Of a stretch of DNA of 64,000 nt, positions 4,128 to 58,752 are shown piece by piece. Numbering within the stretch: the first letter of the stretch is position 1; every line of letters starts with the position of its first letter. A program made the translations under genes and the position numbers. The notes beneath the pieces were generated by a model. It was not told the origin of the DNA and ran no database searches. It was given only the letters and a program-made list of their open reading frames with translations. Source of the DNA: Clostridia bacterium. Lineage in GTDB: Bacteria > Bacillota > Clostridia > TANB77 > RGIG9151. The stretch is taken from contig JAGBIO010000024.1 of the NCBI GenBank assembly GCA_017934955.1, positions 14,550 to 78,549 of the forward strand. The letters are read 5' to 3'.

Positions 4128-4197
4128 GTAGGGACAGCATAAATGCTGTCCCTACAATCCATCTTCTGTACGGACAGCATTCATGCTGTCCTGCTTT
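4128..4197. repeat. REP-like doublet (family A)
   Basis: TGTAGGGACAGCATAAATGCTGTCCCTACA is fully symmetric, with GTAG on both sides. It is followed by cTGTACGGACAGCATTCATGCTGTCC. Confidence 0.8.
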
Positions 4198-8295: not shown

Positions 8296-8450
8296 ATAGT
8301 TATTATTCAGACTATATCTCCTATAATACCGATACACCCATTGTAGGGACAGCATTCATGCTGTCCTGCTTTTTGCCTTTTCTGTGGACAGCATAAATGC
8401 TGTCCCTACACTATTTATGCTATTTCTATAAATTTAAGTCTGAATAGTAC
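8296..8450. mobile_element. MITE-like element: REPIN (inverted REP doublet) flanked by ~12-bp terminal inverted repeats TATTCAGACT...AGTCTGAATA
   Basis: Core TGTAGGGACAGCATTCATGCTGTCC...GGACAGCATAAATGCTGTCCCTACA with outer inverted repeats TATTCAGACTATA / TTAAGTCTGAATAGTA. The same architecture recurs at 12300-12460, 17330-17460, 17490-17630, 32935-33060 and 46130-46250. Confidence 0.7.
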
Positions 8451-13971: not shown

Positions 13972-14190
13972 AGCTGTAAAAAAACTGCCTCAGGAAAATA
14001 AAATTTTCAAAACAATGACGGAGAACCGGCAAGTACAAACGGATAAGGAATGGGTAAACTCAACACGAGGTTGAGTTTAGCTTACCCCTGCCATGGACGG
14101 CAGATGTAAGCGGCCCATTCCGTTTCATTTTGTACTCCGGTTTGTAGTCCCTGTTTTGAAAATTTTATTTTCCTGAGGCAGTTTTTTACA
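13972..14190. repeat. ~210-bp element bounded by 35-40-bp perfect terminal inverted repeats with a highly structured interior (candidate MITE or structured ncRNA)
   Basis: Left arm CTGTAAAAAAACTGCCTCAGGAAAATAAAATTTTCAAAACA (13972-14012) and right arm TGTTTTGAAAATTTTATTTTCCTGAGGCAGTTTTTTACA (14148-14190) are perfect reverse complements. The interior has nested helices CCGGCAAGTACAAA/TTTGTACTCCGG and AAGGAATGGG/CCCATTCC and hairpins GGTAAACTCAACACGAGGTTGAGTTTAGC and CTGCCATGGACGGCAG. Confidence 0.5.
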
Positions 14191-34252: not shown

Positions 34253-34981
34253 TTAAACAAACAGTTCCTGAAATTCCTCGCTCTTAAACACATCAAGCGG
34301 TTTTCCCACGCATTTAATTGTCTTATCCAGTAAAACAACTTTATCCGCATACTTCTTCACAAACTCAAAATCATGCGAAATAACGATAATCGTTAAATCG
34401 TACTTCTTCCTCATTCCTGAAACAATATCATAAAAGATTTTCAAGCCCCGATGATCCACTCCCGACACCGGTTCGTCCAACAATAAAATATCCGGCATCG
34501 GCGTAATTGCCAAAGCAAGCATCACTCGTTGTAATTCTCCGCCGGACAACAAACCAAGCTTTTTATCCAGTAACGAACTCGCCTCAACCTTCTCTAACGC
34601 CTCTTTCGCAATTTCCTCCGAAGAACGACTTCTTTTCAACCACAACGGAACATTCGAATACGTGACATTAAACAAATCCCGCACCGTCACAGGCGAAGTT
34701 TTATCAAAATCCAGCATTTGGGGAACATAACCGATATTCGGTTTTCTTGTAAGACGATCCTTCTCATCGGTAAAAGATAAACTCCCCTCGTGGTGTATTT
34801 CCCCTAAAATTGCTTTTAGTAAAGTACTCTTCCCCGCACCGTTCGGACCAATAACCGCCGTTAAATCGCCGCAATGCAAATGCAGATTAATATTCTCTAA
34901 AATAACTTGATTTCCCCTTTTCACTGAAAAATTCTTAATTTCCGTGCAACAAAGTTTGCACTTTTTAAGCGTCAACTTCAT
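34253..34981 (-). CDS. Metal (Zn/Mn-type) ABC transporter ATP-binding protein, ZnuC-like
   Basis: Walker A GPNGAGKST, signature LSGGELQRV and Walker B LLLDEP, typical of the ZnuC/MntB subfamily. The gene overlaps the upstream substrate-binding-protein gene. Confidence 0.75.
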   Translation of the reverse strand: MKLTLKKCKLCCTEIKNFSVKRGNQVILENINLHLHCGDLTAVIGPNGAGKSTLLKAILGEIHHEGSLSFTDEKDRLTRKPNIGYVPQMLDFDKTSPVTVRDLFNVTYSNVPLWLKRSRSSEEIAKEALEKVEASSLLDKKLGLLSGGELQRVMLALAITPMPDILLLDEPVSGVDHRGLKIFYDIVSGMRKKYDLTIIVISHDFEFVKKYADKVVLLDKTIKCVGKPLDVFKSEEFQELFV

Positions 34982-35861
34982 AATAAGATTTCACGCTCTC
35001 CTTTATCCTCTTAATATTTTCCTGCATTTTCTTCTCATAACTCTCCAAATCCGCCTCTCCCGAAGTAATAGAATCTAAAGTATATACTTTAATTCCCGTT
35101 TCATCCGAAACCATTTTGGAGAGTTTGTCTGATGCATCTTGCTCCGCAAAAATACCCACTACCGAGCTCTCCTTTAATCCCGCAATCAATTCACTCATTT
35201 CCTTTGGTGTCGGAGAAACATCTTCTCCACGTTCAATCACATCAAAAATCTCAATTCCGAAATCCTTTGCAAAGTAAGAAAAAGCGTCATGTGACGTCAC
35301 AATCTCAATATTCTCATACCCATACAACTCTTGCCGCAAATCATTGCGTAACGCCTTCAATTTATCGATATACGCTTGCATATTCTCCCGGTACTGCTGT
35401 TCATGCGCGGGATCTCGAGCAATTAAACCATTTCCGATTGCCTCAACCTGCAAGATTGCATTACTGATACTAAGCCAAATATGCTCATTATATCCGTCAT
35501 AAAATCGATTTTCAAGCAACTCTATATGTTCGCCGGAATCCAAAACATCAATTTCTTCCTTCTCAAGGATTTTATCCATAAACCCCTCTAAACCGGCACC
35601 GTTAATAATAAATACGTCCGAATTCTCAATTTGTTTCATATTCGCCGTAGAAAGTTGATAATCATGAATACAACCGGCTTGATTCTCTGTAATATTATAA
35701 ACATTCACATCCGGAATCCCCTCGGTAATATTTCGCGTAAAAATATAAACCGGATAAAAAGACGTCACAATGTCAAACGACGCTTCCTCCGATACCGAAG
35801 TATTCCCGCGACAGCCTGTACACAAAAGCACAAAAAGTAATACGATATATCTCCACTTCAT
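34965..35861 (-). CDS. Metal ABC transporter substrate-binding lipoprotein, ZnuA/TroA-like
   Basis: Lipoprotein signal MKWRYIVLLFVLLCTGC, plus TroA-fold motifs (VVTSFYPVY..., HDYQLS, HIWLS, VTSHDAFSYFAKDFGIEI). The start is placed after the REP-overlapping N-terminal extension of the ORF-track call. Confidence 0.75.
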   Translation of the reverse strand: MKWRYIVLLFVLLCTGCRGNTSVSEEASFDIVTSFYPVYIFTRNITEGIPDVNVYNITENQAGCIHDYQLSTANMKQIENSDVFIINGAGLEGFMDKILEKEEIDVLDSGEHIELLENRFYDGYNEHIWLSISNAILQVEAIGNGLIARDPAHEQQYRENMQAYIDKLKALRNDLRQELYGYENIEIVTSHDAFSYFAKDFGIEIFDVIERGEDVSPTPKEMSELIAGLKESSVVGIFAEQDASDKLSKMVSDETGIKVYTLDSITSGEADLESYEKKMQENIKRIKESVKSYYEVDA

Positions 35862-35929
35862 AATCTCATCTCCCTCCTTGTTACAATTTAGATTATAAAT
35901 TATAAAAATGGCACAATCTCTGTACGGAC

Positions 35930-36100
35930 ACAATTCATTGTGTCCTAATTCTAATGTCTACCTATTTTCCGGCCATAAAAATGGCACAAACACTGTAGGG
36001 ACACAATTCATTGTGTCCTAATTCTAATGCCTACCTATTTGGGCATAATAATGACACAATCATTGTAGGGACAGCATTTATGCTGTCCTTTCTATCTATT
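35930..36100. repeat. Three tandem REP-like hairpins (two family B, one family A) in direct orientation
   Basis: CTGTACGGACACAATTCATTGTGTCC, CTGTAGGGACACAATTCATTGTGTCC and ATTGTAGGGACAGCATTTATGCTGTCC, each followed by a similar ~35-bp tail (TAATTCTAATG.CTACCTATTT..GGCCATAA). Confidence 0.8.
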
Positions 36101-36107
36101 TTTCCCA

Positions 36108-36836
36108 TTATAATCTCGTTACAAAAATTCCCGCCAAAAAGCCAACCATATAACACATCACCGGCATTCTTCCTCTATAAAGCCGATTCGACTCCGGCAG
36201 TAATTCGCCACTCACCACATACATCATTGCACCTCCCGCAAAACCAAGAGAAAGCGCAATCATTTCTGCTGAAATATTGCCCAACACACTCCCCATCACA
36301 GCACCTATACCGGTCGGCAATCCCGACAAAAACGCCAATGCAACAGCCTTTCCGAAACCCATTCCCGACTTTCGCAAAGGAAGTGTAATCGCAATTCCCT
36401 CCGGTACATCATGTAGGGCAATCACTAATGCCAAGGTCAACCCCAATTTCACCGAACTTCCAAATCCCGCTCCAATGGCAAGCCCTTCCGGCAAATTGTG
36501 TAGCATAATCCCAATAAAAACAAGGAACCCTGTCTTCGCTAACCTTGACTCCGCAAACCTTCTTGAAAAACACTTCATCACTGTTTCCGTCACACATAAT
36601 AACACCACACCAAGCATAAAGCCCGCAAGCGTCATCTGAATTCCCGAAAGAAAAAAGCCCTCCGGTAACAAATCAAAACACACCACAGCCGTCATAATTC
36701 CGGCAGCCAACTCCAAGAATATACTCGAAAGTTTATTGGAAGATTCCTTCATAAAACACCCCAATAAACCTCCCAATGTAGTTCCAAAAACACCTGTCAA
36801 AGTTCCAAAAACAGCAATAAACGTAAAATTCTCCAT
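36108..36836 (-). CDS. ZIP-family (ZupT-like) divalent metal/zinc permease
   Basis: Multi-TM protein with ZIP signature motifs HNLPEGLAIGAGF and HDVPEGIAI. The start is placed at MENFTF, downstream of a REP hairpin. Confidence 0.75.
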   Translation of the reverse strand: MENFTFIAVFGTLTGVFGTTLGGLLGCFMKESSNKLSSIFLELAAGIMTAVVCFDLLPEGFFLSGIQMTLAGFMLGVVLLCVTETVMKCFSRRFAESRLAKTGFLVFIGIMLHNLPEGLAIGAGFGSSVKLGLTLALVIALHDVPEGIAITLPLRKSGMGFGKAVALAFLSGLPTGIGAVMGSVLGNISAEMIALSLGFAGGAMMYVVSGELLPESNRLYRGRMPVMCYMVGFLAGIFVTRL

Positions 36837-36867
36837 TCGCAACTCTTTTCTCGAAATTGCTATCCAA

Positions 36868-36900
36868 AACATCCGTACGGACACAATTTATTGTGTCCTG
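36868..36900. repeat. REP-like hairpin, family B
   Basis: CCGTACGGACACAATTTATTGTGTCC. Confidence 0.8.
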
Positions 36901-38164: not shown

Positions 38165-38402
38165 AATATATTGTAGGGTCACAATTCATGCTATCCTGCC
38201 TTTCTGTCTTTTCTGTGGACAGCATAAATGCTGTCCCTACACCATTTGTGCCATTTTCTACATTTGAAAAATACAGGCGTACGGACAGCATTCATGCTGT
38301 CCTATTTTCCAACATTCGCTCATTTCCCGGACACAATGAATTGTGTCCCTACGGCGATTGTGCCATTATTGTAGGGGACGGCGTCCTCGACGTCCCGATA
38401 TA
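38165..38402. repeat. Cluster of five REP-like hairpins mixing stem families A, B, C and a hybrid
   Basis: ATTGTAGGGTCACAATTCATGCTATCC (a decayed A/B hybrid), GGACAGCATAAATGCTGTCCCTACA, CGTACGGACAGCATTCATGCTGTCC, CGGACACAATGAATTGTGTCCCTACGG and TTGTAGGGGACGGCGTCCTCGACGTCCCG. Confidence 0.8.
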
Positions 38403-41149: not shown

Positions 41150-42814
41150 ATGCCATACGACGGACTTGTCACAAGAAAAATCAAAGAAGAATTAGAAGAA
41201 AAATTAATATACGCAAAAGTAGATAAAATCATACAACCCACAAAAGACGAACTGATTCTCTCTTTTCGCGCACAAAAAGAAACCTTACGACTTCTTTTGT
41301 CCGCGAATGCTGAAACTGCCAGAACGCATTTAACAAAATATTCTTTATATAAAAATCCGGCAAAACCATTTAACTTCTGCATGATTCTACGCAAATACCT
41401 CTCCGGAGCAAAACTCTTACATATTTCTCAACCGAATAACGACAGAATCTTAGCCTTCTCTTTCGAAAACAGCAACGAATTGGGAGACAAAGAAAATCGA
41501 ACGCTTCTCATCGAAATGATGGGGAAATACAGTAACATTATTCTACTAAACGCCTCCGATACCATCATCGACTCCTTAAAACACGTTGACTTCGAAATCA
41601 GTCGCGTTCGCGAAGTCATGCCGGGAAGAAAATACACTCTCCCGCTAAACGCAGAAAAGAAAGACCCTTTTGCCGTTACGAATCAAGAATATACTTCTCT
41701 CTTGGCAAAACACCAAGAAAACTTTTTAGCAACCGCATTTATCGGAATTTGTACTCCTGCCGCGAAATACTTTACCGAAAGCACCGATTCCTCTTATTCC
41801 GCTTTTTCTCAATTTATTCATCAAAAAACACAAGCCATGGTATTCACCAAAAACGGACAACCGCATGACTTTTATTTTTGTGCTTGCCCTGTTTTAGGGA
41901 TTTCTGCTCAACCGACGACTACCCTATCGGAAGCCATCGATGAAGTGTATCGTCACAAGATTACGCAAAAACAATTGCTTTCTGCGAAAAACAGCCTCTC
42001 AGAAAATGTTTCACACTTGATTGCCAAGACAAAAAAGAAATTAGATATTATTGATTCTAAGTTAGAAACAACAAAAGACATGGAAGAGTTAAAAATAAAA
42101 GGCGAATTGCTCTCCGCCAATCTATATCAAATTAAACCTTATACTGCGGAAGTAAAAGTATGCGATTACTATCATGCAAACTCCGAATTAAATATTGCCT
42201 TAGACCCCAATTTATCGCCTTCCCAAAATGTTCAAAAAATATTTAAAAAGTACAACAAATTAAAAAATACCGTTACCGCTTGTTCGGCGCAAAAAGAAGA
42301 GTTAACCTCCGATCTTGCTTATTACGAATCCTTACTTTTTGAAATACAAAATCAAGAGTATATAGAAGACTTAGAGGAAATCAAAGAGGAATTATTAGCA
42401 CAAAAATTAATTCACTCTCAAAAAACCGAAAAGAAAACCACACAAAAAAACTACCTCACCTACACCTACGAAAATTTCGAAATTCTTGTCGGTAAAAATA
42501 ACCTGCAAAATGACCAATTAACCTTTAAAATTGCGCACAAAAACGACCTCTGGTTCCACGTCAAAAACGCCCCCGGATCCCACACCATACTACGTACAAA
42601 CGCTCAAGATGTTTCACGTGAAACGTTAGAATTCGCAGCCTCTCTCGCAGCCTCTCACTCCAAATTAAAAAACTCACCGAAAGTAGAAGTAGACTATACT
42701 GAAATAAAAAACGTCAAAAAAATTCCGGGTGCAAAACCCGGAATGGTAATATATGTAAATTATAAAACGATTTATATTGCACCTAATGACCACTCATCTT
42801 CTTTCCAAGGATAA
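41150..42814 (+). CDS. rqcH: RqcH (NFACT family; formerly fibronectin-binding protein A-like), ribosome-associated quality control
   Basis: 554 aa with an NFACT-N domain (MPYDGLVTRKIKEEL...KIIQPTKDELILSFR), a central coiled coil, and a C-terminal NFACT-R/DUF814 domain (DLWFHVKNAPGSHTILR). Confidence 0.8.
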   Translation: MPYDGLVTRKIKEELEEKLIYAKVDKIIQPTKDELILSFRAQKETLRLLLSANAETARTHLTKYSLYKNPAKPFNFCMILRKYLSGAKLLHISQPNNDRILAFSFENSNELGDKENRTLLIEMMGKYSNIILLNASDTIIDSLKHVDFEISRVREVMPGRKYTLPLNAEKKDPFAVTNQEYTSLLAKHQENFLATAFIGICTPAAKYFTESTDSSYSAFSQFIHQKTQAMVFTKNGQPHDFYFCACPVLGISAQPTTTLSEAIDEVYRHKITQKQLLSAKNSLSENVSHLIAKTKKKLDIIDSKLETTKDMEELKIKGELLSANLYQIKPYTAEVKVCDYYHANSELNIALDPNLSPSQNVQKIFKKYNKLKNTVTACSAQKEELTSDLAYYESLLFEIQNQEYIEDLEEIKEELLAQKLIHSQKTEKKTTQKNYLTYTYENFEILVGKNNLQNDQLTFKIAHKNDLWFHVKNAPGSHTILRTNAQDVSRETLEFAASLAASHSKLKNSPKVEVDYTEIKNVKKIPGAKPGMVIYVNYKTIYIAPNDHSSSFQG

Positions 42815-45800
42815 ACAAAGCTAATAATCCAAGTGCTCCGACACCTGCAATGGTACCTCCCACTACGCCGCCTGAATGACTTCCGCCACCGGAATTGCCG
42901 GAACCGCCGGAGCTGCCTCCACTCGAGCCACCGGAACCACCTCCGCTCGAACCGCCGCCATTCACCGGCGTATAGGTAATCTTGTTAAATACACTCATGT
43001 GCGCATCTACATGTCTGGTCTGCACAAAATCTTCAACCTCTTCTCCGTTACTATCAATATAACGACCTTTCAGAGTTGCAACAACAATTGCCGAACCCGG
43101 TTGGTTTGCAGTCGCCTTGACCTTTATATCATAATAAATAAACCCTTCTTCATCTGTCTTCTCTTGAAGCCCTACCACTTCTGCAGAAGAAATCGCATTA
43201 ACGATATTTCCTGCCTCATCCTTTGAAGTATCGTTAATTGCTATATTGATATCTTCTTTTTTCACAGTAAATTTTCCTAATTTAGCTTGGTCCAAATTTT
43301 TAAAATCTAAAATCTCCTCCTCGGAAGAATTTCCATACAGATAACTTGTTCTTGCACGTATGGTATATTCTTTCGTCTCTCCGGGATTAAATCCAAAATC
43401 TGTCGGATATAAAATATTCACTTGGAATCTTGCCCGTTCATCTCCGCCTTTTATAATTCGAATTTTAGCATAATCGATTTGCCCGTTTATATTTTCAACT
43501 TTAATAGTAACATCATCTGAAAAATACTTTGACGATTTCTTTCCACTCTCTGTCAAACCGATTTCTAATTTCTCGTTTTCTAAATTCTTAAGATAAAAGA
43601 AATGACTGCTATCTCCGGAGCCGCTGTTATTGGAAAAATAGTCATAATTTGGATATAAAGACTGACTGGTTGCTGTAATCTTTTTAATCTCACTGTTACA
43701 AATAATATCCATCTCCGTCTCAATCGGGCGATATTCGTAATATTGGCTTCCTTCCGGACCAACAAGTACTTTATCGATATAAAACTCAGTTTGATAAACA
43801 TTTATCCGAAGTTCATAATCCAAATTTAAATTTCCGGTCTTTCGATTATAATGACAAATTGAACAAACATCATTTACAAAAGTATGCGGCTTTTCACCAT
43901 ACTTATCACCACATACCGGACACTCATACCAGTGCGTATCCGGTCCGCTTACTAAATTCTGCATCCGACCCGGATGTTGGCACCCTTCCGGTTGAGTAAC
44001 ATCACATCCTGCAAGCGAACACTTTCCATTTACAAAAGTATGACTTTCCAAAATACTTTGACCGCAAAGATCACAAGTTTTTCTGTGTTGTGTAAGTGTA
44101 CTCATTACTTTGCGCCACACATGACTACACGTTCCATCTTGTGTGTATCCGCAAACCAAACATTTGCTTCTCGTAGAATCAAAGCTATGATTTGCTCGAT
44201 CTACCTCTCCGCAAACGGAGCATTCCCGATAATGCTGCGTTGAGCCCCATTTCCAAGGACCTACACTGTGATTTTGGTAAACCGTACCGCAAACAGTACA
44301 CTTTCCTCCGTTTTGATGTGTGCCTCCGGTATGATTCTTACACACAAATTGATGACCACATTTGTCGCATTTATCATCTTTATCTTTATCCTCATGGTTT
44401 TCCGTATATGTCTTTGAACAACCGGAAGCAATACAATTAGCAGAGTGCGTCGAATCATCTACTTTTGTCCAATTATTCGCCGGACCATGTTCTTCATAGG
44501 CATACTTACATTTTGTACATATTCCTCCGTTACTATGCGTCGCACCGGTATGGGAACCTTCGTTAAAATGTAAATCACAACCGGAACAGGTTTGCCAATG
44601 CTTTGTATCATCCCAGTCCCACTCAGAAGAAGCCGTATGATCTTGGTATTGCTCGCCGCAAAGTGTACAAGTTCCTTTGTTTTCATGCGTTCCGCCACTG
44701 TGTTCACCTTCTCTGCAATTTACTTTTACATAAATTGTCTTTGAACCTTTCCCCTGTAAAGTAACGATAATTTTTGCTTTCTCTAAAGAAGGCATTAAAC
44801 CGGTAATAAAACCATCCACCACCTTTAACGAGGTGCCTTCTGCCGTCCAACTCAGTACACTGTAATCCATTTTATAATCACTTGCATTAATCGCTATACC
44901 GCCATTTCGAAAAGTAGGCGTTAACGCAACACTTTCTCCCACTCGAATCGTTTCTGGTCCGATTAATCCGCTTAAAGTAATATCTTCTCCTACATAAACC
45001 GCACATTCCGCTTTTACTCCGTTAATTGCCGTCGCGGTAATAATCGTTGTTCCTAACGTTTCAAGAACCGTAACATTCCCGTTTTCATCCACCGTTGCAA
45101 CAGAAGGATTGCTCGAAGTCCATGTAAAAGTTTGTGTAACCGTATCCTGCGGTTTCTTATTCTTTATTGTTAAAGTAAATGATTTATTAAAATCGGAAGT
45201 CGTATAGGTAGACTGACTTAATTCAAAGGATTTTACCTGCTTATCGTCATACGGCACTCCTTCTGTTCGACAAATCTCACAGGTATTCCCCTGATCCGGT
45301 GTATGCGCTGTTTTTCCTAACGGATACATACAAGTCGTACAATATTGCCAGTGATACGAATTATCCGATTTAAAATCCGTACTTGATTCATGTAGCGCTC
45401 CTCCAAATTCCATTTGACATACGACACATTTATACCAGTGACGATAATCATTCACCTGAATCGCACCTTTTACGTGCTCTTGATAAGATTTATAGGTACA
45501 TCCTGCAAAACTGCAATTGCTCCAATGATATTCTTCATTATACCCTTGTTCCGTTGTACTATTCTCATGTGTCTGATAGTTTGCCTGACACACCTCACAA
45601 GTACCTTTGTTTTCATGCGTTCCACCGGTATGATACGCCGATTTTATCGCAAAACAATTCGGATCGGAACAATACTGCCAATGCTTTCCCTTCAACTCCG
45701 GTTGATTCTTAAAAAATTTTTCACACTTTTCACAACTGCACCCGAATTTATGATACGGTTGATTGGTAAAATAGTGCCTCGTACGAAAAACCTTCGCACA

Positions 45801-45986
45801 AACTATGTTTGTTGTATTATACTTATTACATTTATAGTAATGATAATTTTCGTCACTGCCCGCAAAAACATTTGATGTTATATGTCCTTCATTCAACTCT
45901 GCAGTAGTATGTAAAGTAAAATCCGCTGCATTTGAAAAATGAATTAAAAAACAGAACGAAATAAGTAACAACCAAAATTTCTTCAT
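42783..45986 (-). CDS. Large cell-surface protein with two blocks of tandem Cys/His-rich (HWxxCxxC...H / HTGGTHxNGGxCTxC) repeats, a Big_2 Ig-like domain, a Gly/Ser linker and a C-terminal TM anchor
   Basis: 1067 aa with a signal peptide. It has at least 15 repeats of the type [HY]W..C..C-x(8-14)-H(T/S/E) plus four near-identical H(T/S)GGTHxN(K/G)G(T/K/I)C(T/E)(V/L)C units. There is a Big_2-like segment (TWTSSNPSVATVDENGNVTVLETLGTTIITATA), a GGGSSGGGSGGSSGGSSGGSGNSGGGS linker and a terminal hydrophobic helix ending in KKMSGH. Confidence 0.6.
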   Translation of the reverse strand: MKKFWLLLISFCFLIHFSNAADFTLHTTAELNEGHITSNVFAGSDENYHYYKCNKYNTTNIVCAKVFRTRHYFTNQPYHKFGCSCEKCEKFFKNQPELKGKHWQYCSDPNCFAIKSAYHTGGTHENKGTCEVCQANYQTHENSTTEQGYNEEYHWSNCSFAGCTYKSYQEHVKGAIQVNDYRHWYKCVVCQMEFGGALHESSTDFKSDNSYHWQYCTTCMYPLGKTAHTPDQGNTCEICRTEGVPYDDKQVKSFELSQSTYTTSDFNKSFTLTIKNKKPQDTVTQTFTWTSSNPSVATVDENGNVTVLETLGTTIITATAINGVKAECAVYVGEDITLSGLIGPETIRVGESVALTPTFRNGGIAINASDYKMDYSVLSWTAEGTSLKVVDGFITGLMPSLEKAKIIVTLQGKGSKTIYVKVNCREGEHSGGTHENKGTCTLCGEQYQDHTASSEWDWDDTKHWQTCSGCDLHFNEGSHTGATHSNGGICTKCKYAYEEHGPANNWTKVDDSTHSANCIASGCSKTYTENHEDKDKDDKCDKCGHQFVCKNHTGGTHQNGGKCTVCGTVYQNHSVGPWKWGSTQHYRECSVCGEVDRANHSFDSTRSKCLVCGYTQDGTCSHVWRKVMSTLTQHRKTCDLCGQSILESHTFVNGKCSLAGCDVTQPEGCQHPGRMQNLVSGPDTHWYECPVCGDKYGEKPHTFVNDVCSICHYNRKTGNLNLDYELRINVYQTEFYIDKVLVGPEGSQYYEYRPIETEMDIICNSEIKKITATSQSLYPNYDYFSNNSGSGDSSHFFYLKNLENEKLEIGLTESGKKSSKYFSDDVTIKVENINGQIDYAKIRIIKGGDERARFQVNILYPTDFGFNPGETKEYTIRARTSYLYGNSSEEEILDFKNLDQAKLGKFTVKKEDINIAINDTSKDEAGNIVNAISSAEVVGLQEKTDEEGFIYYDIKVKATANQPGSAIVVATLKGRYIDSNGEEVEDFVQTRHVDAHMSVFNKITYTPVNGGGSSGGGSGGSSGGSSGGSGNSGGGSHSGGVVGGTIAGVGALGLLALFILGKKMSGH

Positions 45987-46112
45987 CTAACCACCTCATC
46001 TTTTATGTTATCGGCAAAAAATATTTCAAAATAATAGCTTTTTCTTCTTGCGACTCAATCGTATACAGATATAATTATTTTACCACTTTTTTATGTAAAT
46101 TTAAATACATTT

Positions 46113-46400
46113 TAAAGAAAAGTGTTTTGCGTAGGTTACAGGTCAGACTCAACCTTTATATGTACCTTAAATGTTTCTCAATCTATTGTAGGGACAGCAT
46201 TTATGCTGTCCTGCTTTTCCGCCTTTTCTGCGGACAGCATGGCACTCAAAGCTTCCCAAGAACGTAGTGATTGGCTGGTTTCGACTGCGCCGCGAGTTGC
46301 GTAGCAACATTCCTTTCGCGTGAGTGTGCTTCCCCGCAGAGCGTTTTTAGTTGTATAGGAAAATCAAAGATTTTGCCTATATAACTAAAAACACTGTCAA
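46113..46400. repeat. Copy 3 of the ~140-bp composite repeat (family E), interrupted by a degenerate MITE-like family-A REPIN
   Basis: AAAAGTGTTTTGCG at 46113-46126 and TGCGCCGCGAGTTGCGTAGCAACATTCC...TGTATAGGAAAATCAAAGATTTTGCCTATATAAC at 46290-46400 match the ends of copy 1. Between them lies TAGGTTACAGGTCAGACTCAACC...ATTGTAGGGACAGCATTTATGCTGTCC...GCGGACAGCATG|GCACTC, a MITE left end plus a truncated second hairpin. Confidence 0.7.
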
Positions 46401-58682: not shown

Positions 58683-58752
58683 TTGTAGGGTCAGCATTCA
58701 TGCTGTCCTGCTTTCTGCCTATTCTGTGGACAGCATAAATGCTGTCCCTACA
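58683..58752. repeat. Family-A REPIN inside the dnaA-dnaN intergenic (oriC) region
   Basis: TTGTAGGGTCAGCATTCATGCTGTCC...TGTGGACAGCATAAATGCTGTCCCTACACC. Confidence 0.8.

Follow-up and report, generated by a model that had tools for sequence, protein, structure and literature searches.

We consider it rather probable that the two Cys/His-rich blocks of a clostridial surface protein consist of an undescribed extracellular repeat that carries structural metal sites, most likely of zinc, and acts as a stalk or scaffold. The protein, 1067 amino acids (aa) long, is encoded on the minus strand at positions 42783-45986 of a 64,000-nucleotide (nt) stretch of metagenome contig JAGBIO010000024.1 (Clostridia bacterium, GCA_017934955.1); this whole stretch is referred to below as the window. 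A first-pass annotation of the same DNA had placed the open reading frame (ORF) exactly and had called the protein 'giant', which overstates its size. The features of the gene and its product are as follows.

42783..45986, minus strand: whole gene of the 1067-aa surface protein, stop codon included (ORF list, ATG start).
45927..45986, minus strand: Sec-type signal peptide, aa 1-20, MKKFWLLLISFCFLIHFSNA followed by AD, predicted cleavage after SNA (sequence; helix 2-15 in the model).
45270..45911, minus strand: N-terminal Cys/His block, aa 26-239, eight knuckles with 17 Cys + 15 His = 32 candidate ligands.
45474..45632, minus strand: best-scoring double-knuckle unit of the N-terminal block, aa 119-171 (66.2 bits, independent E-value 1.5e-22 with the unit hidden Markov model, HMM).
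44721..45239, minus strand: two Ig-like beta-sandwich domains, aa ~250-422 (Big_2 match, strand pattern of the model, Foldseek matches to multi-Ig surface proteins).
45006-45161, minus strand: Pfam Big_2 (PF02368) match in the first Ig-like domain, aa 276-327 (E 1.6e-7, 31.6 bits against a gathering score of 22.8).
43854..44717, minus strand: C-terminal Cys/His block, aa 424-711, twelve knuckles with 28 Cys + 20 conserved His = 48 candidate ligands.
42987..43823, minus strand: three predicted beta-sandwich (Ig-like) domains, aa ~722-1000, without a family match (full-length model).
42867..42965, minus strand: Gly/Ser-rich linker, aa ~1008-1040, presumed wall-spanning spacer (sequence; disordered in the model).
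42786..42866, minus strand: C-terminal transmembrane (TM) helix, aa 1041-1061, and short basic tail KKMSGH (sequence; helix 1052-1065 in the model).

The protein contains 48 Cys (4.5%) and 44 His (4.1%), and outside the signal peptide all Cys except C328 and C763 lie in aa 53-239 and 424-711. We counted 20 Cys-pair knuckles, 15 CxxC and five Cx4C, as compared to means of 2.1 and 2.1 (about four knuckles) in 2000 shuffles of the whole protein, in good agreement with the more than 15 Cys/His repeats recognised by the first-pass annotation. The pattern H-x3-C-x(2-4)-C-x(6-9)-H occurs nine times versus 0.04 in shuffles and H-x4-H-x5-CxxC-x6-H four times versus 0.00, and the motif excess remains when the Cys-rich blocks alone are shuffled. 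Both module types named earlier are real: 'H[WYSR]xxC(x2/x4)C...H' is found nine times and 'H(T/S)G(G/A)THxNxGxCxxC' four times (aa 119, 429, 479 and 552), the C-terminal block holding three such units in the form HxGGTHxNxGxCxxC (aa 429, 479 and 552). A third knuckle class, 'H-x6-8-CxxC' (n = 5), had not been separated from them.

Alignment of this protein with its relatives gives a double knuckle of ~52 aa, i.e. ~25 aa per knuckle, with the consensus H1-x-G-G-T-H6-x-N-x-G-x-C12-x2-C15-x3-Y19-x2-H22-x~13-H36-x3-C40-x(2-4)-C45-x7-H53, in which H53 of one unit is H1 of the next and neighbouring knuckle pairs lie 22-25 residues apart. In the second half of the C-terminal block the first knuckle takes the variant form H-x6-8-CxxC-x7-C-x-H, with H6 lost and a Cys and a His gained after the knuckle. 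A local unit HMM (profile A2) recovers four full units of 56-68 bits each plus 11 partial matches in the window protein, which qualifies as a member of the new double-knuckle family that this profile describes (~52-aa tandem units in secreted proteins).

Conservation within the unit was counted in 150 proteins, which supplied 263 near-complete units. Both C12 and C15 occur in 100% of these, C40 in 99.6%, H36 in 99%, C45 in 98.5% and H22 in 92%; position 6 is His in 210 units, Cys in 30 and Ala in 15, and position 1 is His in 236 and Cys in 17. Gly directly follows C15 in 132 of the 263 units, producing the CxxCG knuckle signature. The conserved ligands number exactly four per knuckle, that is, 32 for the eight knuckles of the N-terminal block and 48 for the twelve of the C-terminal block. 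Structural metal sites, as in zinc-knuckle folds, are typically marked by conserved His in the same number as Cys, by exchange between His and Cys and by the CxxCG signature, and the interchange argues for metal ligands rather than disulfides. Zinc is the default metal for such Cys/His sites, while iron is possible by sequence. Each knuckle, together with two conserved His or Cys residues, probably forms a tetrahedral structural metal site, most likely for Zn(II), which would amount to ~20 sites in the protein; both the binding of metal and its identity as zinc we infer from ligand conservation and counts. The neighbouring SpoIIR and Fe-hydrogenase genes point to a spore-forming anaerobic Clostridia bacterium (uncultured, gut) as the host. 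Modules of this size have no room for a hydrophobic core, and in an anaerobe without oxidative folding metal would stand in for the disulfides of other small extracellular domains.

The repeat corresponds to no family model that we searched. In the window protein no Pfam or NCBIfam model matches over the repeats at E <= 1 (Big_2 is the sole Pfam match, and NCBIfam returns nothing), the Big_2 assignment holding for aa 276-327 only and not for the Cys/His repeats; neither database covers the repeats in the 77 scanned relatives. Curated Cys-rich repeats (Myxococcus cysteine-rich repeat, CxxC-x17-CxxC) gave no NCBIfam match, the repeats being uncovered in seven relatives. The best hit of a profile search against all PDB sequences was the C2H2 protein Gfi-1, which is not significant (E 0.089), and our literature search found no description of a His/Cys double-knuckle repeat. 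The first-pass annotation had set its reading against a match to a characterised Cys-rich family or Cys residues paired in disulfides: Pfam, NCBIfam and the PDB sequences yielded no such family, and nothing points to disulfides.

Several known classes were considered and rejected for this protein. The classical C2H2 finger is excluded by the lack of any match to the regular expression C-x2-4-C-x12-H-x3-5-H or to Pfam at E <= 1 and by the lack of a helix in the modelled units; a multihaem c-type cytochrome, by the presence of a single CXXCH (aa 708-712), the His of which is not conserved in the orthologs. HxxHxH, as in the Pht-type histidine triad, was not found in the protein, nor was a Rieske or Fe-S motif, and a lipoprotein reading was rejected on sequence. 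For zinc ribbons, in contrast to these rejected classes, the picture is mixed: CxxC knuckles with the appropriate spacing are present, and there is no zinc-ribbon match in Pfam or NCBIfam and no significant fold match. Weak Foldseek matches include Rpb9/A12.2, NrdR and ZPR1; one family member exceeds the gathering score of the Pfam PknG rubredoxin model via its repeats, and one relative has a weak FYVE match.

An exhaustive search of 1.84 billion cluster representatives with the unit HMM, the construction of which had been suggested in the first-pass annotation, returned 240 proteins at E <= 1e-3 (90 at E <= 1e-10 and 29 at E <= 1e-30), with up to 44 matched stretches per protein. The names on the members are solely 'hypothetical protein' or 'LPXTG cell wall anchor domain-containing protein', from metagenome-assembled genomes (MAGs) of Clostridia bacterium. 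Scanning GTDB species genomes with the back-translated GGTHxNGGxCxxC DNA pattern yielded eight loci, seven of which encode family members; all seven come from MAGs of uncultured Clostridia or Clostridiaceae, sampled in sheep omasum and in the human gut, and many of these members terminate in LPQTG, IPNTG or FPKTG sorting signals. A genome-contig scan with the ortholog alignment found nothing. The repeat family is rare, Clostridia-restricted, extracellular and undescribed. The earlier remark that such arrays are unusual is right as to their rarity, but they are not unique, as 240 clusters carry them. One of the loci, L011 (uncultured Clostridium sp. UMGS1640), holds three adjacent paralogous repeat genes on the minus strand (~2660, ~4964 and ~7275) as a tandem gene cluster, and two of the three end in IPNTG sorting signals.

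A sister unit, 'HxGGTATCxxxAxCxxCGxxYG....HxW', carries Cys in place of His6 (P0181, P0189, P0193, P0214, P0231 and P0244; unit pairs, alignment A3). We take this GGTATC variant to be more widespread in Clostridia surface proteins, and the 240 clusters retrieved with the GGTH profile may be only a small part of the whole superfamily.

Full-length homologs are much scarcer: among 5.8 billion clusters we found only three, at 45-49% identity, the search being otherwise dominated by Big_2 matches. One of these orthologs lies in a syntenic position, with NFACT, SpoIIR, RF-1 and an AMP-binding enzyme as its neighbours. The Cys and His residues of both blocks are essentially all invariant in the three. 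The exceptions are H685, which is Cys in P0003; knuckles 609 and 656, which vary among CxC, CxxC and Cx4C; and a whole hairpin (H434, C440, C443 and H450; aa 429-450, 44637-44702) that is present in P0003 and cleanly missing from P0001 and P0002. The last case shows gain or loss at the level of the module without disturbance of the remaining array. Five metagenome contigs carry a protein identical to the 1067-aa one.

How the ligands might be partnered can be read from a model and from the ends of the arrays. For aa 425-539, AlphaFold2 with an alignment of 56 unit pairs gave a model with a predicted local distance difference test score (pLDDT) of 90.6. In this model a knuckle loop leads, in each unit, into a meander of three strands, and the second knuckle sits where b2 turns into b3. 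H22 lies just ahead of b1 and faces the C40-C45 knuckle, whereas H36, at which b2 begins, and H53, directly behind b3, are neighbours across the strands ~13 Å along the strand from C40, which is too far for a metal in common. Across the 161 arrays of the family, His and Cys are both absent from the 24 aa past the last knuckle in 97 of 142 cases, and two or more such residues are found in the 24 aa ahead of the first one in 96 of 131. Similarly, in the window protein the N- and C-terminal blocks each have an invariant residue pair ahead of their first knuckle, H26/H35 and C424/H429, respectively, and no conserved ligand follows their last knuckles, C236/C239 and C708/C711. This asymmetry suggests that each knuckle draws two partner ligands from upstream. 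Self-contained H-CxxC-H fingers are disfavoured because they would leave the leading H26/H35 and C424/H429 unused and the last knuckles incomplete. The metal-knuckle interpretation of the first-pass annotation is supported as far as the ligands are concerned (invariant in the orthologs, 92-100% conserved over the 263 units), but not in its picture of a self-contained H..CxxC..H finger.

The proposed sites would be {H6, H22, C40, C45} and {H36, H53, C12', C15'}, with C22'/H24' standing in for H6/H22 in variant units. The model topology suggests a cross-braced wiring that links successive hairpins: in such a running cross-brace each site would tie the base of one hairpin to the tip of the next, so that a whole block would form an unbroken rod stitched together by metal, not a string of separate beads. 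That the blocks are in fact continuous cross-braced poly-zinc rods, with each zinc joining the Cys knuckle of a hairpin to the His pair of the hairpin before it and 8-12 sites in a single interlocked metal-dependent fibre, is a tentative proposal to which we give somewhat less than even chances.

Overall, the layout of the protein fits a type-I, C-terminally membrane-anchored cell-surface protein. The surface display deduced earlier from the signal peptide, the Gly/Ser linker and the TM helix with its KK tail is borne out, with LPXTG-like, dockerin and choline-binding elements present in relatives, and so is the Big_2 Ig-like domain between the two blocks (Pfam, aa 276-327, E 1.6e-7). Foldseek matches for the Ig-like regions are to the S-layer proteins EA1/SbsB/Sap, cadherins and the Ig-like domains of PrgB; the pLDDT of the full-length model over aa ~722-1000 is mostly 60-89. 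With the membrane anchor at the C-terminus and the N-terminus out, the N-terminal Cys/His block is the distal end. A regular expression for LPXTG-like motifs found none in the 1067-aa protein, which is therefore not of the sortase-anchored class. The LPXTG-less members (the window protein, P0001-P0003, P0139, P0160, P0165, P0170 and P0177) have a similar C-terminus, with a G/S- or N-rich linker followed by a Gly-rich TM segment 'G..G(A/L)(L/I)GLL....(G/S)(K/S)KM..', which may be a plain TM anchor or an unrecognised sorting signal.

Among 152 family members, 119 have a hydrophobic N-terminus, 62 a C-terminal TM segment and 32 an LPXTG-like motif. The repeat is combined with LPXTG anchors, choline-binding, Big_2, BspA-type leucine-rich repeat (LRR), dockerin, lectin-like, papain, FGE-sulfatase and SpaA domains, and it also occurs alone between signal peptide and anchor, many members being almost wholly repeats plus anchor. 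Such a choice of unrelated extracellular partners, together with occurrence alone, is what a structural module of the stalk or spacer type would show, and we therefore favour a metal-stiffened stalk or scaffold role. The arrays would form a rigid stalk or scaffold which, with the five Ig-like domains, would carry the protein across the wall and out past it, and the distal N-terminal array may double as a binding surface.

Several points weigh against this picture. The wiring is a proposal drawn from ligand book-keeping and secondary-structure topology, and some members (e.g. P0123) open with a bare knuckle right behind the signal peptide that the upstream-ligand rule leaves incomplete. Over the Cys blocks the full-length model is of low quality (pLDDT 20-60). 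The case for a stalk is built on the architecture and on the promiscuity of the domain partners; and no adhesive tip domain was found in the protein, in which the repeats may themselves be the functional part.

The last point leads to the main alternative, in which the repeats are the metal-stabilised ligand-binding part of an adhesin, serving multivalent recognition of host, plant fibre or microbes with the N-terminal array as its tip. The N-terminal block is indeed distal in this C-terminally anchored protein, many members have no domain other than repeats and anchor, and the dockerin, LRR and lectin partners are typical of binding proteins. However, we identified neither a ligand nor a binding groove or variable surface, conservation falls on ligand and Gly residues and not on a surface patch, and the same repeat is joined to many unrelated partners, as stalk modules are. 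We consider this alternative unlikely, and the adhesin role that the first-pass annotation had offered as a possibility is a guess.

Next, the protein might be a surface zinc store or capture protein that passes metal to the ZIP and ZnuABC importers encoded nearby, for which the following genes lie in the window:

34253-34981, minus strand: ZnuC.
34965-35933, minus strand: ZnuA.
36108-36884, minus strand: ZIP transporter.

Pneumococcal histidine-triad (Pht) proteins are surface zinc binders. Similarly, ZnuE/F/G of C. diphtheriae are surface zinc-binding proteins tied to znu loci (PMC12445094), so that znu-linked proteins of this kind do exist. Like Pht and ZnuE/F/G, the protein studied here is a Gram-positive surface protein for which several zinc sites are predicted (~20 potential ones per molecule) and which has genes for zinc uptake in its vicinity: ZIP, ZnuA and ZnuC lie 6-9 kb from the repeat gene, and ZnuA is also close to the ortholog on contig L004. 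Unlike them (HxxHxH, HxD/HxH, no Cys), it has no HxxHxH and no operon link. Four genes in other orientations intervene, and the upstream regions of the surface-protein gene and of ZIP/ZnuA have no regulator site in common, the only shared element being a genome-wide repetitive extragenic palindromic (REP)-like palindrome. With 27 copies of this palindrome in the window, its sharing is no evidence for zinc co-regulation. Tetrahedral Cys2His2 sites in tiny domains are, moreover, typical of structural, non-exchangeable zinc, and other family members are found in unrelated contexts. Because of the four intervening genes and the lack of any common upstream element but the palindrome, we give zinc acquisition a low weight and regard it as quite improbable.

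A metal-free array held by disulfides is more doubtful still. Extracellular Cys-rich repeats elsewhere are usually disulfide-bonded, and the number of Cys per double unit is even (four), but this leaves four equally conserved His per unit unexplained. His/Cys interchange makes many units odd in Cys, with 17 Cys in the N-terminal block, the CxxCG signature points to metal, and the host is an anaerobic Clostridia bacterium of a reducing habitat; we regard disulfides as very unlikely.

An extracellular electron conduit made of redox-active iron sites, with either mixed His/Cys ligands or a rubredoxin-like Cys4 set contributed by two knuckles, is hardly credible. The 22-25-residue knuckle spacing of rubredoxin and zinc ribbons, the member scoring on the PknG rubredoxin model and the anoxic, iron-rich habitat would suit it, but the conserved His are left unexplained. 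The redox-active module suggested in the first-pass annotation finds no support: the protein has a single CXXCH, the His of which is not conserved, and neither a Rieske nor an Fe-S motif. With one site for every ~25 residues of extended beta structure, the metals are probably too far apart for efficient hopping, and there are no electron-transfer partners nearby.

Returning to the structural-metal stalk or scaffold that we prefer, the repeat can be classed as kin to two known kinds: zinc-knuckle mini-domains and the tandem-repeat stalks of Gram-positive surface proteins. The zinc-ribbon fold group of the Krishna-Majumdar-Grishin classification of 2003 reportedly includes Rpb9, NrdR and the rubredoxin domain of PknG. 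Like zinc-ribbon and rubredoxin knuckles, the repeat has CxxC(G) at beta-hairpin turns in tiny all-beta modules, with two knuckles 22-25 residues apart, but in contrast to zinc-ribbon Cys4 sites its conserved His and array-end asymmetry argue for His2Cys2. It resembles eukaryotic zf-C2H2 arrays in being tandem, with one Cys2His2 site per ~25-28 residues, and differs from them in lacking the classical pattern and the His-bearing alpha-helix and in being secreted or anchored rather than a nuclear nucleic-acid binder. Similarly to RING, PHD and FYVE domains, the inferred ligand pairs of adjacent sites interleave along the sequence; whereas those are closed intracellular two-zinc domains, interleaving in the repeat would, judging from sequence and topology, run through 8-12 sites.

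As for stalks, the families of Gram-positive fibrillar adhesins include Big_2, SpaA, Cna_B, Rib and G5-E (Monzon et al. 2021, PMC8286594), and neither zinc nor cysteine is mentioned in that survey of 82 families (PMC8286594). The proteins described here share with these stalks the tandem repeats between signal peptide and anchor, the mixture with Ig-like domains and the promiscuous partners. However, known stalk domains are beta-sandwiches of 70-100 aa, while our modules are ~25 aa long and defined by their ligands.

To our knowledge, small extracellular modules are almost always held by disulfides or calcium, and zinc-finger-like arrays are regarded as intracellular. If our interpretation is true, this family from uncultured Clostridia of gut and rumen would show how strict anaerobes stabilise thin surface structures without oxidative folding, via dozens of His2Cys2 knuckles, and surface architecture, perhaps including adhesion, would depend directly on environmental or gut zinc. 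The cross-brace, if true, would be a new fold principle and a new way to chain metal sites, with zinc in place of disulfides in rigid stalks. For the annotation of gut-microbe surface proteins, in which the repeats are presently unannotated, this would offer a further stalk or scaffold module, and, compact, modular and confidently predicted as it is, the repeat could serve as an engineering scaffold.

Finally, the gene itself carries its own expression signals:

45991..45997, minus strand: Shine-Dalgarno sequence GAGGTGG, 5 nt 5' of the ATG (sequence reading).
42722..42744, minus strand: terminator-like hairpin plus T7, 39 nt beyond the stop codon, within the 3' end of the convergent rqcH/NFACT ORF.

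The upstream neighbour is a DUF234 gene at a distance of 442 nt. Given this gap and the convergent NFACT/RqcH gene downstream, the surface-protein gene looks monocistronic. The surface-protein and NFACT/RqcH ORFs overlap by 32 nt (42722-42814 region), and the corresponding pair on contig L004 likewise overlaps, by 20 nt.

The REP-like palindrome, (A)GGACAGCATRAATGCTGTCC(S)TACA with the compensated variant GGACACAATRAATTGTGTCC, stands in nearly all intergenic regions of the window, frequently as inverted pairs ~40 nt apart. Its pattern is matched 58 times versus 0.09 expected. Copies lie, for example, at 1005-1024, 4132-4151, 8347-8405, 17372-17588 and 35926-36088, and further ones at 38217-38348, 46192-46211 and 58728-58747; one is ~206 nt upstream of the surface-protein gene. 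The sole Rfam match in the window is a TwoAYGGAY RNA motif on the plus strand at 14016-14150 (50.6 bits, gathering score 43).

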